DNA of 51,643 nt, from the sequence record NC_049852.1; one strand, given 5' to 3'. Of this stretch, positions 5,115-10,057 are shown in pieces (position 1 is the stretch's first letter; each line of letters starts with the position of its first letter). Source of the DNA: Escherichia phage egaa. Position numbers and translations under genes: made by a program. The notes under the pieces were generated by a model. The model was given only the letters and a program-made list of their open reading frames with translations, made no database searches and was not told where the DNA came from.

Positions 5115-5154
5115 CATTTTTTGTTAAATGCGGGTAGCATTGGTGCGGTATTAT
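5109..5154 (+). promoter_or_regulatory. element variant AATAGCATTTTTTGTTAAAT + 22-nt spacer + TATTAT
   Basis: 5109-5128; hairpin gcggtattattgccgc overlaps -10. Confidence 0.55.
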
Positions 5155-5183
5155 TGCCGCATCAAAAAAAGGAGTTATCATCA

Positions 5184-6767
5184 ATGAATTTTTCGTTTGA
5201 AACCAACAAACTAACACCAAAACAAATTATCGAATTAGCTGATGCACAAGGATTGTCTCCGGTGCGCGTGTCCATTCAGGCAAACGGATACCGTCAATCG
5301 TCCAGCTTTTGGGGTGAGGTTAATGATGTTAATAACGGAAATGATCGCTACCCTGTAATTTCTCTTGGCAATGATGTTGATGTTGTTGGTAAGTTGGCGC
5401 GCAACATTGCTCGCTCAGTTCAGTTCCCTGAATCATCGGCATATATGCATTTTATCGGCTGCGTGTCTGCTGCAATGCTTGGACGCTTCACGGTTGAGTA
5501 TCACGGAACGGATCAGCCGACCGCTCTTTATGTTGTCACAAGCCAGCCTCCTTCAACTGGTAAATCTGCCGTTAACAGCCTGGCACTTGCTCCAATGGTT
5601 GCAGAAGTGGAAAGAATTAACGATCAGCGAAAGAAGGAAAGAAAAAAGATTCAGGCAAAGTTGGCAGGTCTTGCAAAAGAGATGAAAAGCGAGCGCTCCG
5701 GCGCTGATATGGAATCTCTATACCAGGAGAAAGAAGATCTGGAAGAAAAACTGGAAAAGATGTGTGACATTGTTTTCCCTGTGTCCGACACCACGCCGGA
5801 AGGACTTGCAAGAATCAACAATCGCCAGGGTAACTTTGCTGTGATTTCAGACGAGGCAACGAGTATTAACAGCCTTTTAGGTCTGACATATGCTAATAGC
5901 GAACGTAAAACCAACAGCGAACTTGTGCTGAAAGCATGGGATCATGGTCATGTTTCTATAGCTCGTGCAAACGCTGACAACAATATGAGTTTTAAAGCTC
6001 TTGGCTGTATGGCGGTGATTGCCCAGGATGAAACAATCAATGCCATCATGGATGCAGGATCGCGCGGTATCGGTGTGAGTGAGCGTTATTTGCTTGTGCG
6101 TGAGGAATCATTTTTAGGTCGTCGAAAGTTTGTTGATGATAACGGTGATTCTACTTATGAGCCTGTTGATGGAGAACTGAAAAGTCAATATTTTAAGCTG
6201 ATCCATAACATCATGAGTGAATCAAACATCCAGCTTAAGATCAGTAAATCAGCAATGCGAGTTCTTAACATGGCTCGTCAGGAGATGGAGCCGCACCTTG
6301 CTGATGGCGGAAAGTATTCGCATACAATGCTGCGCGGTGCTCTTGGCAAAATGGATAAGCAGGTGATCAGGATTGCTTCGGTTTTGCACACTATCCGCAA
6401 CTGGTTTAATCCTGGTGGATACCCTCAGAAGTCGAAAGAGATTGAAGTTGAAACCGTTCAAGAAGCACTGCTGATGTTTAGCGAGTTGAGCAAAACATAC
6501 ATTAGCGCCGCCAACGCTTCTGGCTATGCTGGTGATGATGCTGAAATGGGTAAACTAATCGAGATTATCACTCGACACGGTAAGGCTAACAAGGGGATCT
6601 TGAATGTTCGCGCCATATATGAGGCTGCACGAAAAGTTAAGCCGTTTGTTGGCCAGGCTGGCGTAATGAAGCGTATGGAAACGCAACTGCTGCCGATGCT
6701 TGAAGAAAGAAATTATATTTGTGTGATTAATGGCGTTGTTTTTGTAAATCCAACATTGCTGGGGTAA
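5184..6767 (+). CDS. P-loop NTPase-like early protein (527 aa)
   Basis: In-frame ATG (codon 22 of track ORF) with RBS aaAGGAGttatcatcaATG; Walker-A-like QPPSTGKSA; coiled-coil KKERKKIQAKLAGLAKEMK; function unknown. Confidence 0.65.
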   Translation: MNFSFETNKLTPKQIIELADAQGLSPVRVSIQANGYRQSSSFWGEVNDVNNGNDRYPVISLGNDVDVVGKLARNIARSVQFPESSAYMHFIGCVSAAMLGRFTVEYHGTDQPTALYVVTSQPPSTGKSAVNSLALAPMVAEVERINDQRKKERKKIQAKLAGLAKEMKSERSGADMESLYQEKEDLEEKLEKMCDIVFPVSDTTPEGLARINNRQGNFAVISDEATSINSLLGLTYANSERKTNSELVLKAWDHGHVSIARANADNNMSFKALGCMAVIAQDETINAIMDAGSRGIGVSERYLLVREESFLGRRKFVDDNGDSTYEPVDGELKSQYFKLIHNIMSESNIQLKISKSAMRVLNMARQEMEPHLADGGKYSHTMLRGALGKMDKQVIRIASVLHTIRNWFNPGGYPQKSKEIEVETVQEALLMFSELSKTYISAANASGYAGDDAEMGKLIEIITRHGKANKGILNVRAIYEAARKVKPFVGQAGVMKRMETQLLPMLEERNYICVINGVVFVNPTLLG

Positions 6768-7323: not shown

Positions 7324-7356
7324 TGTTTCATCGGAACGAATATGAGGATTTTAAAA

Positions 7357-7578
7357 ATGGCTATCAAAGTAACAAAGAAAGAGACAAAAATCATCAATGT
7401 AACTTTTGATGTTTTCAACGACAAAGGAACTGCGACAAGAGAAGATGGCAGCACGTTTGAAATAAATCGTTACGAATACAATGAAATGTTATGGGATATA
7501 AAGAAGAAAGGTGCTTACATTCTTGTCGAGAATGATTATAGCGGAAACAGCTTTCAAGATTTGATGGATGCACTATAA
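7357..7578 (+). CDS. hypothetical early protein (73 aa)
   Basis: In-frame ATG (codon 6 of track ORF 7342-7578) with RBS GAGGAttttaaaaATG. Confidence 0.6.
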   Translation: MAIKVTKKETKIINVTFDVFNDKGTATREDGSTFEINRYEYNEMLWDIKKKGAYILVENDYSGNSFQDLMDAL

Positions 7579-7581
7579 AAC

Positions 7582-7608
7582 AAAGGAGGCGTTAAGCCTC
7601 CTTTTTGT
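7582..7608. terminator. bidirectional intrinsic terminator between convergent genes
   Basis: aaaggaggc-gttaa-gcctccttt followed by tttgttg (plus) and tttgtttt (minus); spanin stop codon lies in the loop. Confidence 0.65.
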
Positions 7609-7990
7609 TGCCTTTGCGGTAGGAAAAGTAAAGCATTGACAAAAGACCGCTAAAAATTGCAGCGCAATAGATTATGGGATCGTACCACTTCCTTTGCTCA
7701 CCCTGCACAACCTGGATTTTATCAGCCTTGATGGTATTGGCCTGAATGGTTGACGTAGTGAAATCCTTCTTGCTGGAAGTGTCCACCTTATCAACCGCAG
7801 ATTCCTTTATTGTAGTTTCCTGTTTTGTGCTGGTGTCCTGCTTTGCGGTAACGCCAACGGTCTGCTTTACGTTCTCCGCTCCTGCCTGTGCTGTGATTTC
7901 CGGCTTACTACCGATTAATCCGGTCAGTGGCGTAACGCTTGAACATCCAGACAAAATAACAGCGATAGCGATTATTGATAACTTTCGCAT
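7592..7990 (-). CDS. unimolecular spanin (u-spanin; outer-membrane lipoprotein with C-terminal transmembrane domain)
   Basis: N-terminal lipobox ...AVILSGCSS, Thr/Lys-rich periplasmic linker, C-terminal hydrophobic helix YCAAIFSGLLSMLYF; directly downstream of endolysin as in phage T1 gp11. Confidence 0.7.
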   Translation of the reverse strand: MRKLSIIAIAVILSGCSSVTPLTGLIGSKPEITAQAGAENVKQTVGVTAKQDTSTKQETTIKESAVDKVDTSSKKDFTTSTIQANTIKADKIQVVQGEQRKWYDPIIYCAAIFSGLLSMLYFSYRKGNKKEA

Positions 7991-7992
7991 AA

Positions 7993-8481
7993 TTACAGAT
8001 CCTTAATGCAATATTTAAATTCCACCGCGCGGCGGTTGCGCAGTCCTTTAGACGTTTCTTTCTTTCCTGTTTTTGGATTGGTGTATTTTGTCCATCTCCA
8101 TAACTGATCGCACGCTTCCATATAACGACCGTTATTAATCAGCTTAAGCATGGTTGAATTTCTAAAAGCTCCAGTTCCAGCATTGTATGTGAATGAATAC
8201 ATTGCTGCGCGCATTGTATCAGGAATGTCAACCTTTACACGCTTATCAACTTCATCCTTTGCGATTTTGATATGCTTCGCCAGTAGTGCATCGCACTCTC
8301 TTTGTGTGTACGTTTTGCCTTGTATTACGTCAGGGCCAGTTATTCCGGCGCAAACCGTCCATACCCCAGCAATATCTTTGTACGGCTTATGTTTTACTCC
8401 TTCTATTTCCTCCAGTAGCGGAGAAGTAAGGGCAAGAGCAACGCCAAAAGCCGCAGCGGTCACTCTTTGTTTTATACTCAT
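7993..8481 (-). CDS. endolysin, T4-lysozyme-like (GH24), probable SAR (signal-anchor-release) type
   Basis: Catalytic E-x8-D-x5-T triad ([16 protein letters not shown]); weakly hydrophobic Ala/Gly-rich N-terminus [18 protein letters not shown]. Confidence 0.8.
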
Positions 8482-8696
8482 TATTTACCTCTGATCTCAA
8501 TAGCTTTCTTAATATCACCGCATTCAAGCGCGTCACGTAGCGCCTTACTATCACGCCAGCGAAGATAAGCGCCCCACATACCAAATGCAGCCATCAAAAC
8601 GAAGCTGGCTATTGCAATAGTTGTTTGACCAGTTACCGCGCCAGTTATTGACGCGCCGCCAGTGCCGGAAGTTGCAGCGTTTAAAAAATCTTTCAT
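8481..8696 (-). CDS. holin (possibly pinholin)
   Basis: 71 aa, hydrophobic core [29 protein letters not shown], charged C-terminus; immediately upstream of endolysin; RBS cAGGAGatctaATG. Confidence 0.65.
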
Positions 8697-8769
8697 GATT
8701 AGATCTCCTGTAAATAAAAGTCAACAATTAATTGATTGTATCCTAACCATTGAACGCACAAAAAGGAAT

Positions 8770-8810
8770 AAAAAAAGGGCAAAGCAAAATGCCTCGCCCA
8801 ATTAAATTGA
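8770..8810 (-). terminator. possible terminator/attenuator upstream of lysis cassette
   Basis: minus strand gggcgaggc...gctttgccc imperfect hairpin followed by TTTTTTT; approximate. Confidence 0.35.
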
Positions 8811-8827
8811 TGATTTATATTGATATT

Positions 8828-9958
8828 TTAATAATTAAAAGTTCGATCTGCCATTTCTGGATAATGCATAAATCGCCCGACCTCGCCGTATTCTTTATCG
8901 TAAACAATAACAGCCGCACGGCGACGAGAACGCCATCCACCGCGCGCAGCATATGCATCTTTTGCCGCCATAGTGCTATGCACTTCAACAATGCCCAGGC
9001 TTGTTTCAGTTACTGTCTGATGATGCCAGTGCCCTACGTGAGCATACATCATTTTTGAATTGCCGAAATCTTCGCGCCAGTCTGCCGCGCACATCATGAG
9101 CAATGTTTCAGGTTTGCGGATAGTATGCCCGTGATGGTATGCCAGGAACGTTTTGCCATATTGTGTGTGATGAACTACTCGCGGAGACACATCAACATGC
9201 ACTCGCGGCTCATTCTCATATGCTGCCGCCATTGCTGCGCGCAACCAGATCATGCCGCTTTGGTCGTGGTTGCCTTCAATGATCTGAATCTCGACGTTTT
9301 TGTGTTTTGATAACAGCTTTGTGATTGCTCTACGCACTGACCGGATGGCAACATAAACAAGTTTTGCATATCGACTATCTTGGTCTAATACGTGACCGCT
9401 TGCAGGCGTTACCGCTTCCAGTCCGTCGCTGTGAAGCATATCACCACCAATCAGCAAAACAGCCTTCTCACTATCCGGCGCGCACTGGATGGAATAATCA
9501 ATGAAATTATTCATTACGCGCTCTGCTGTTGCTGTATCCCAATTCTCGCCGCATTCATGCTTATGCGCCATTGCGCCCAGGTGCATATCAAAGATCGGAT
9601 ACAGTGATAACGTCTCGCTATAATCCTTTTGTGATTCTGGTTGCGGATCAAGTCGCGGAACTTCTTCGCTAAATGCATCCATAGCGGCCTGCATTAATGC
9701 TTCTAACTGTTCGCGGTCCTTGCTTGTCTTAATCCATGTCATAACCACATTGCCATCTTGATCAATTAGCTTTGATTCTCCAGTAACACCAAAACCAGGT
9801 GATCCGATGGTTGTAACTTTACCTTGCTTTGCTAATCGTGCCGCGCGGCGCTCAATGCTGCGAACGTTCATACCATACTCATTAGCGATCTGCTTATATG
9901 TCTTTCCCTGCTTGCGCTCATTGATAAATTGTTCATCTGTGATTTTGATTTGATTCAT
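8828..9958 (-). CDS. HTH domain - calcineurin-like metallophosphoesterase fusion protein
   Basis: N-terminal helix-turn-helix (KTYKQIANEYGMNVRSIERRAARL); phosphoesterase motifs FDMHLG (DxH), GGDMLHSDG (GDxxH), GNHD; ATG at 9958 with AAGGAG upstream (track start is TTG at 9961). Confidence 0.6.
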   Translation of the reverse strand: MNQIKITDEQFINERKQGKTYKQIANEYGMNVRSIERRAARLAKQGKVTTIGSPGFGVTGESKLIDQDGNVVMTWIKTSKDREQLEALMQAAMDAFSEEVPRLDPQPESQKDYSETLSLYPIFDMHLGAMAHKHECGENWDTATAERVMNNFIDYSIQCAPDSEKAVLLIGGDMLHSDGLEAVTPASGHVLDQDSRYAKLVYVAIRSVRRAITKLLSKHKNVEIQIIEGNHDQSGMIWLRAAMAAAYENEPRVHVDVSPRVVHHTQYGKTFLAYHHGHTIRKPETLLMMCAADWREDFGNSKMMYAHVGHWHHQTVTETSLGIVEVHSTMAAKDAYAARGGWRSRRRAAVIVYDKEYGEVGRFMHYPEMADRTFNY

Positions 9959-10057
9959 CAAAAAATTCTCCTTATCTCATTATGACAACGTATACAATAG
10001 AGATCGCCATCATAACAGGTAATGGCAAAAGTAACAAACGCCACATGATAATAATCC

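Follow-up and report, generated by a model that had tools for sequence, protein, structure and literature searches.

The stretch of DNA analyzed here (the window; 51,643 nucleotides of Escherichia phage egaa, sequence record NC_049852.1) is a nearly complete Hanrivervirus genome (Drexlerviridae, Tempevirinae), from a T1-like siphophage. Its minus strand carries, between positions 7592 and 8696, three tightly packed open reading frames. An earlier note, made from the sequence alone, had proposed the gene order holin, endolysin and 132-aa protein, and the coordinates and sizes match the list of open reading frames exactly. The stop codon of the holin gene and the start codon of the endolysin gene overlap by one base (TAATG), the endolysin stop is separated by 2 nt from the ATG of the spanin gene, and a Shine-Dalgarno-like motif can be read from the sequence before each of the three starts. 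The gene for the protein of the unimolecular spanin (u-spanin) type is the last in this holin-endolysin cassette. The features of the cassette and of its flanks are as follows:

8777-8799, minus strand: terminator-like hairpin of 10 pairs with T7, located after the exonuclease/phosphoesterase gene at 8828-9961
8481-8696, minus strand: holin, homologue of T1 gp13, 71 aa (open reading frame; PHROG 2877; 59% identity to T1 gp13)
7993-8481, minus strand: endolysin of the signal-anchor-release (SAR) type by prediction, a GH24/T4-lysozyme-like muramidase and homologue of T1 gp12, 162 aa (PF00959; 65% identity to T1 gp12)
8413-8463, minus strand: codons of the predicted SAR segment V7-L23 of the endolysin (hydropathy, composition, alignment with the SAR segment of R21)
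8356-8403, minus strand: codons of the catalytic triad E27-x8-D36-x5-T42 of the endolysin (regular expression match; invariant in alignment)
7592-7990, minus strand: u-spanin of the T1 gp11 family, 132 aa (PHROG 1804; 47% identity to T1 gp11; 602 homologues)
7943-7990, minus strand: predicted lipoprotein signal peptide of the spanin, residues 1-16, with lipobox L13-S14-G15-C16 (motif; C16 invariant)
7619-7675, minus strand: C-terminal transmembrane helix of the spanin, I106-Y124 (hydropathy; helix in the AlphaFold2 model; homologues)
7582-7604, both strands: bidirectional hairpin resembling an intrinsic terminator (9-bp stem; folding; conservation)
7342-7578, plus strand: convergent 78-aa open reading frame without a Pfam match (listed for KarlJaspers and G29-2 as a hypothetical protein)

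The cassette and its flanks are 99.0% identical at the nucleotide level to those of Escherichia phage vB_EcoS_G29-2, which is also a Hanrivervirus, and 94.7-98.1% identical to those of herni, KarlJaspers and Shigella phage pSf-1, where 94.7% is the whole-cassette identity to pSf-1. All differences from these four Hanrivervirus phages, across the range of 94.7-99% identity, are point changes. The corresponding genes of G29-2, herni, KarlJaspers and pSf-1 are annotated as holin, endolysin and either "u-spanin" or "Rz-like spanin", with the spanin gene named RzlA in the GenBank record of herni, and the 28 u-spanins of the T1 family include that of pSf-1 (PMC6139136 Table 5). Hence, this cassette has been described and annotated before in near-identical phages, there is nothing new in it, and nothing contradicts its assignment.

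The similarity to the more distant cassette of phage T1, which consists of genes for gp13, gp12 and gp11, extends to the gene order and to the protein sizes of 71, 162 and 132-133 aa, as well as to the LSGC lipobox, the C-terminal transmembrane domain (TMD) with a KKEA tail, and the terminator hairpin whose loop holds the stop codon, although the TMD sequences have diverged. Another difference lies upstream, where T1 carries an HNH gene and the SH3/DUF7244 gene for gp14 between the exonuclease and the holin, while the window has a gap of 131 bp. A homologue of the T1 gp14 gene is absent from the window, because a tblastn search of the window for this SH3/DUF7244 gene returned nothing better than E=1.8. 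Such a small SH3/DUF7244 gene, with the exonuclease on one side and the pinholin on the other, has been described as a frequent but non-universal accessory (PMC13164509). The 131-bp gap contains the hairpin at 8777-8799, which marks the upstream border of the cassette. A convincing sigma-70 promoter was not found directly upstream of the holin gene; the only sigma-70-like match upstream, at 8724-8695, extends over the holin start codon and does not exceed the expectation from shuffled sequence, and it was set aside.

The assignment of the 132-aa protein to the u-spanins relied on its homology and on two predicted membrane anchors. The protein is 47% identical to T1 gp11 over 127 of 132 aa (E=1e-36), and it matches PHROG 1804, "Rz-like spanin," with E=1.6e-49. 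Membership of the T1 gp11 u-spanin family has been defined by at least 40% identity to a member across 40% or more of the length (Kongari et al. 2018), a threshold above which the alignment with T1 gp11 lies in both respects. The u-spanins themselves are defined by an N-terminal outer-membrane lipoprotein signal together with a C-terminal TMD (Kongari et al. 2018; PMC6139136). This architecture, with T1 gp11 as its model, was the one that the earlier note had proposed for the 132-aa protein, from an LSGC lipobox at one end and a transmembrane helix at the other, and both elements were recovered. The lipobox motif occupies residues 13-16 and is followed by Ser17, which at position +2 predicts sorting to the outer membrane. 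The 19 residues from I106 to Y124 have a Kyte-Doolittle (KD) hydropathy of 2.16 and are followed by the basic tail RKGNKKEA, which is predicted to be cytoplasmic. The part between the anchors comprises 88 residues and is hydrophilic, being rich in Thr, Lys, Ser, Val and Gln. The only cysteines of the protein are C16 in the lipobox and C109 inside the TMD, with none in the periplasmic part, and a periplasmic cysteine is present in 0 of the 58 u-spanins surveyed earlier (PMC6139136).

To see how general this arrangement is among related proteins, a search of 5.8 billion proteins was used, which yielded 602 relatives, and motifs were counted in the best 120 of these 602. The data showed a canonical lipobox in 116 of the best 120 homologues (LSGC in 111), with LPGC in three others and one fragment, and a serine at position +2 in 115. 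A C-terminal window of 17 aa with KD of at least 1.6 was present in 119 of the 120, a cysteine between the lipobox and the TMD was seen in one of them, and the lipobox cysteine was invariant in both spanin family alignments. Because the lipobox and the hydrophobic C-terminus are near-universal among these 120 homologues, the sequence comparison indicates that the two-anchor architecture of the spanin is a trait kept by selection across the family and not one due to chance.

The AlphaFold2 model of the spanin, which was built from an alignment of 67 sequences, had a mean pLDDT of 55, with helices modeled for the signal (residues 3-13) and for residues 105-127. The latter helix, with pLDDT values of 72-87, is the sole confident part of the model, and residues 17-104 showed neither secondary structure nor a compact fold, with pLDDT below 50. 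The periplasmic domain of u-spanins has been predicted to be dominated by beta-strands (Kongari et al. 2018; PMC6139136), which the model, at its low confidence in this region, did not reproduce but does not refute either. The maximum extended length of the 88-residue periplasmic part is about 30 nm, and consequently it would span the periplasm only if it were largely extended, a need which fits the published collapse-and-fuse model of spanin action.

The window's spanin would share the task of the lambda Rz/Rz1 pair, which is to link the inner and the outer membrane and, after murein degradation, to disrupt the outer one, and its gene likewise closes the cassette. It differs from Rz/Rz1 in being a single polypeptide without a coiled-coil helix, a periplasmic cysteine or an embedded gene, and no sequence similarity to Rz/Rz1 is left once the signal peptide is removed. 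The lysis defect of lambda RzRz1 is reported to be complemented by T1 gene 11 (PMC6139136; PMC7830690). Homologous periplasmic domains, 41-46% identical to that of the window's spanin, are present in u-spanins of KP34-like podophages (Autographiviridae, Slopekvirinae: phiKDA1, SU503 and Minorna), which likewise have a lipobox and a C-terminal TMD, while their cassettes differ in the order spanin-holin-endolysin, in having a different holin, and in a longer endolysin. A candidate link between u-spanins and o-spanins, given by matches of the window's protein to the NCBIfam model spanin2_3 (E=4.6e-5) and to PHROG Cor, was rejected, as both matches disappeared on removal of the signal peptide.

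A lipoprotein encoded by a phage could also serve in superinfection exclusion, as Cor does, or as some other outer-membrane lipoprotein, and weak full-length matches of the 132-aa protein to PHROG 1119, Cor (E=1.8e-5), and to the TraV and lipoprotein models of NCBIfam could be read in this way. However, these matches vanish when the signal peptide is left out of the search, while the match to the spanin family PHROG 1804 is retained with E=6.6e-35. Moreover, the protein has a C-terminal TMD, its gene sits last in a lysis cassette, and its homologue T1 gp11 has been tested functionally; it is therefore extremely improbable that it is a Cor-like or other outer-membrane lipoprotein and not a spanin.

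The endolysin belongs to the Pfam family Phage_lysozyme (PF00959, E=5e-38), and its PHROG family is likewise assigned as endolysin. The regular expression E.{8}D.{5}T matched its sequence once, at E27, and the residues E27, D36 and T42 were invariant among 10 aligned homologues from siphophages and podophages, which agrees with the E-x8-D-x5-T triad that had been recognized before. The claim of an Ala/Gly-rich, SAR-like N-terminal segment fared less evenly: the segment V7-L23 is SAR-like and rich in alanine, of which it has five, but with a single glycine it is not Gly-rich. This segment of 17 aa, whose best 15-aa mean Kyte-Doolittle value is 1.85, consists to 53% of Ala, Gly, Ser and Thr. It is preceded by K4 and R6 and followed by the acidic pair E24 E25, which lies only three positions ahead of the catalytic Glu27. 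For hydropathy, P1 Lyz, lambda R and T4 E provided N-terminal segments as rough comparators only.

The best solved relatives of the endolysin are R21 of phage 21 (3HDE, 3HDF) and the RrrD prophage enzyme (4ZPU), with E about 1e-40, while P1 Lyz (1XJT/1XJU) is a distant match only, with E about 1e-4. The alignment with R21 (3HDE, E=2e-41) starts as early as residue 3 and covers the SAR segment. Crystal structures of R21 have been obtained both for the full-length form and for the form without the SAR domain (3HDE, 3HDF). The endolysin of the window resembles R21 in its GH24 fold family, in the E-D-T triad, in the weakly hydrophobic N-terminus that aligns with that of R21, and in a SAR segment free of cysteine. 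It differs in that R21 has a 6-residue linker, TGPSGN, between the SAR segment and the catalytic Glu, which the window's enzyme lacks, and in a 6-residue insertion of its own near residues 133-143. The predicted SAR segment is also short, with its 17 aa shorter than that of R21. A single-sequence AlphaFold2 model of the endolysin reached a pLDDT of 49.9, which was too low for use.

The shortness of this segment, and the triplet A15-L16-A17, which fits the -3/-1 rule, could alternatively suggest an ordinary cleavable Sec signal peptide and hence a soluble, secreted enzyme. However, among the 10 aligned endolysin homologues, T1 included, the hydrophobic character of the segment is conserved but an AxA cleavage motif is not, and this disfavors a cleaved signal peptide, as does the alignment of the whole N-terminus with the SAR domain of R21, which is uncleaved. 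Additionally, a constitutively secreted, active lysozyme would lead to early lysis and would deprive the holin, which is in fact conserved, of its purpose. A cleavable signal peptide is therefore quite unlikely, and the N-terminus is better read as a SAR segment. Since there is neither a conserved AxA site nor a cysteine in the segment, the sequence points to an endolysin that, if it is SAR-regulated, would be of the R21 type and not of the disulfide-caged P1 Lyz type. The SAR status of the T1-family endolysins is itself a prediction in the papers cited here.

The 71-aa protein matches the holin family PHROG 2877 with E=1.2e-35. A weak similarity to Pfam DUF3262 (E about 1e-3) fell below the cut-off and was set aside. 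Hydropathy analysis showed one clear TMD in this protein, at approximately residues 25-45, where the best 17-aa KD value is 1.94, followed by a charged C-terminal tail. The N-terminal 24 aa consist to 62% of Gly, Ala, Ser and Thr, and their best 17-aa KD value is just 0.64. The glycines G13, G14 and G23 are invariant in the alignment of T1-type holins. A dual-start antiholin/holin motif was not found in the holin reading frame, which opens with a single Met, the next Met being residue 35; a dual start is not obligatory for class II pinholins. The holin gene adjoins and overlaps the gene of the predicted SAR endolysin, as expected for the pairing of a class II pinholin.

The T1-type holin has been called a two-TMD class II pinholin (PMC11447400, for TLS/T1; PMC6139136), and because the N-terminal 24 aa are barely hydrophobic this topology is uncertain. 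No sequence relation to the prototype S21 68 was detected, compared to which the first "TMD" of the T1-type holin is far less hydrophobic. The alternative is a holin with a single TMD in an N-out, C-in orientation, unlike S21 68. It is suggested by the hydropathy of the N-terminal 24 residues in six family members, with best 17-aa KD values of 0.59-0.95 versus 1.9-2.5 for the clear TMD, and also by the GenBank notes for the T1 and G29-2 holins, which give "1TMD" or "single transmembrane domain." On the other hand, a content of 58-67% Gly, Ala, Ser and Thr in the N-terminal region, together with the invariant glycines, has the flavor of a releasable, SAR-like TMD1, and the published analyses cited above count two TMDs. 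A single TMD is thus a possible but doubtful topology, and it may still be compatible with a small-hole depolarizer, although of an uncharacterized topology; if it were true, a holin topology that has not been characterized would be serving a SAR endolysin.

In view of the gene content, motifs, homology and conservation observed in the window, the cassette is very probably the module with which this T1-like siphophage lyses its host late in infection, and it would attack the three layers of the envelope in turn. The same reading has been given in the literature: the cassettes of all but two of the T1-family u-spanins also encode a pinholin and a SAR endolysin (PMC6139136), and the combination of pinholin, SAR endolysin and u-spanin has also been described for TLS/T1 (PMC11447400) and for KanT1/T1 (PMC13164509). 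By analogy with R21, S21 and T1 gp11, we infer how export, tethering, triggering, lipoylation and membrane fusion might proceed in this phage. During late gene expression the endolysin would be exported by the host Sec system and tethered by its SAR segment to the periplasmic side of the inner membrane, where it would be inactive because the catalytic Glu27 lies only about 3 residues from the membrane-embedded segment. The 71-aa holin would build up in the inner membrane and, at a set time, would trigger and collapse the proton-motive force in the manner of a pinholin. Upon depolarization, the SAR segment would leave the bilayer, and the lysozyme would refold into its active form and degrade the peptidoglycan. 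Such refolding to the active form has been shown for the homologue R21.

The last layer would be the task of the u-spanin, which by then would have received its lipid at Cys16 and reached the outer membrane, with its C-terminal helix still in the inner membrane. Its 88-residue periplasmic part would be threaded through, and thus caged by, the murein meshwork. Once the murein was gone, the u-spanins could move laterally, oligomerize and collapse, by which the inner and outer membranes would be fused or disrupted and the virions released. How a single u-spanin, beta-rich or extended, fuses two membranes is a general question to which this cassette adds no new handle. The cassette is instead a textbook example of the pinholin/SAR-endolysin/u-spanin route, which occurs in hundreds of sequenced T1-like phages, and it is useful as a positive control, since its gene functions, motifs and terminator had been identified correctly from the raw sequence alone.

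The cassette and the convergent genes on the opposite strand probably end at one shared hairpin terminator. The nearest convergent open reading frame (7342-7578), which is not a lysis gene, stops 4 nt ahead of the hairpin stem. In the hairpin at 7582-7604 a 9-bp stem, AAAGGAGGC/GCCTCCTTT, encloses a 5-nt loop at 7591-7595, and this stem is flanked on both strands by an A-rich run on the 5′ side and a T-rich run on the 3′ side. The predicted folding energies are -16.6 kcal/mol for the plus strand (z=-3.8) and -15.3 kcal/mol for the minus strand (z=-3.3). The TAA stop codon of the spanin gene, at 7592-7594, is located within the loop, and consequently the last three spanin codons form the stem, whose left arm on the spanin strand encodes the final residues K-E-A. 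The prediction of a bidirectional, terminator-like hairpin with the spanin stop in its loop is thus borne out by the stem, by the A and T runs on both strands and by the folding z-scores.

The arrangement is not specific to the window. The hairpin was kept in 7 of the 7 Drexlerviridae examined, which were T1, BananaBelafonte, ESP2949-1, KMI8, SRT8 and DTL besides the window, with compensatory changes in the stem and the stop codon always placed in or at the loop. The stems of the relatives vary (GGAGGC, GGGGCT, GGCCC, GGAGCC, GCCTCC), yet remain fully complementary. Both the topology of the holin and the placement of the stop codon in the loop are points that concern the whole family. It is conceivable, but on balance unlikely, that the 71-aa T1-type holin is a depolarizer with a single N-out, C-in TMD and that the stop in the loop lets the ribosome finishing the spanin mask the hairpin, thereby tuning read-through into the convergent genes. 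The RefSeq record of T1 and the record of G29-2 already carry a terminator annotation at the equivalent hairpin.

The u-spanin encoded in the egaa lysis cassette was compared with those of the KP34-like podophages phiKDA1, SU503 and Minorna (Autographiviridae, Slopekvirinae). The alignment showed that the podophage proteins are homologous to that of the window, with 41-46% identity. On the other hand, the cassette order in these phages is spanin-holin-endolysin, and their holin is different from that of the window. The presence of a homologous u-spanin next to a different holin and in a changed gene order indicates that the spanin gene moved independently of its partners. Hence, the spanin gene has been transferred between unrelated phage families without its partner genes travelling along.

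In every u-spanin gene examined, that is, in the window (hairpin at 7582-7604) and in the other Drexlerviridae loci compared (L002, L004-L008), the final two to three spanin codons double as the 5′ arm of the terminator's stem, and across the same loci the C-terminal residues (KEA, KGA, KAQ, KEP or KAS) co-vary with the stem sequence. Further upstream in the gene, positions 7709-7753 encode three tandem pentads, STIQA, NTIKA and DKIQV (residues 80-94), located in the periplasmic domain immediately ahead of the transmembrane domain. Residues I82, A84 and A89 were unchanged throughout both spanin alignments, while T86 and I87 were each invariant in one of the two. The pentads may constitute a short beta-ladder or an oligomerisation element.

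The surroundings of the cassette contain the following features:

5121-6767, plus strand: 548-aa ORF, DUF3987 protein (E=2e-43)
8697-8827: gap of only 131 bp that separates the holin gene from the exonuclease/phosphoesterase gene
8777-8799, minus strand: terminator-like hairpin inside this gap
8828-9961, minus strand: gene upstream of the lysis cassette, annotated in relatives as "DNA repair exonuclease" or "phosphoesterase"

While T1 (gp14) and many Drexlerviridae carry an SH3/DUF7244 accessory lysis gene at the position of the 131-bp gap, a search of the whole window found no homologue of it. The Pfam search of the 8828-9961 product returned a sub-threshold HTH_28 match at the N-terminus and no metallophosphatase match; its counterpart in KarlJaspers is annotated as shorter (1116 bp). 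The counterparts of the 5121-6767 ORF in relatives are annotated as helicase. Because this gene is annotated in KarlJaspers as 1584 bp (527 aa), as compared to 548 aa from the called TTG start, an internal ATG is probably the true start.

The region 7400-8900 was also 96-98% identical to about 20 GenBank records named "Campylobacter phage", with C. jejuni as the stated host, including MG065638.1 (A15a) and MG065649.1 (A143). T1-like phages are notorious for contaminating laboratories (PMC13164509), so T1-like contamination or mislabelling probably accounts for these records matching a coliphage cassette.

A search of the whole window for tRNA genes gave no hits. The window's length of 51,643 bp nearly matches the 51,739 bp of the full G29-2 genome, which shows that it is an essentially complete phage genome.
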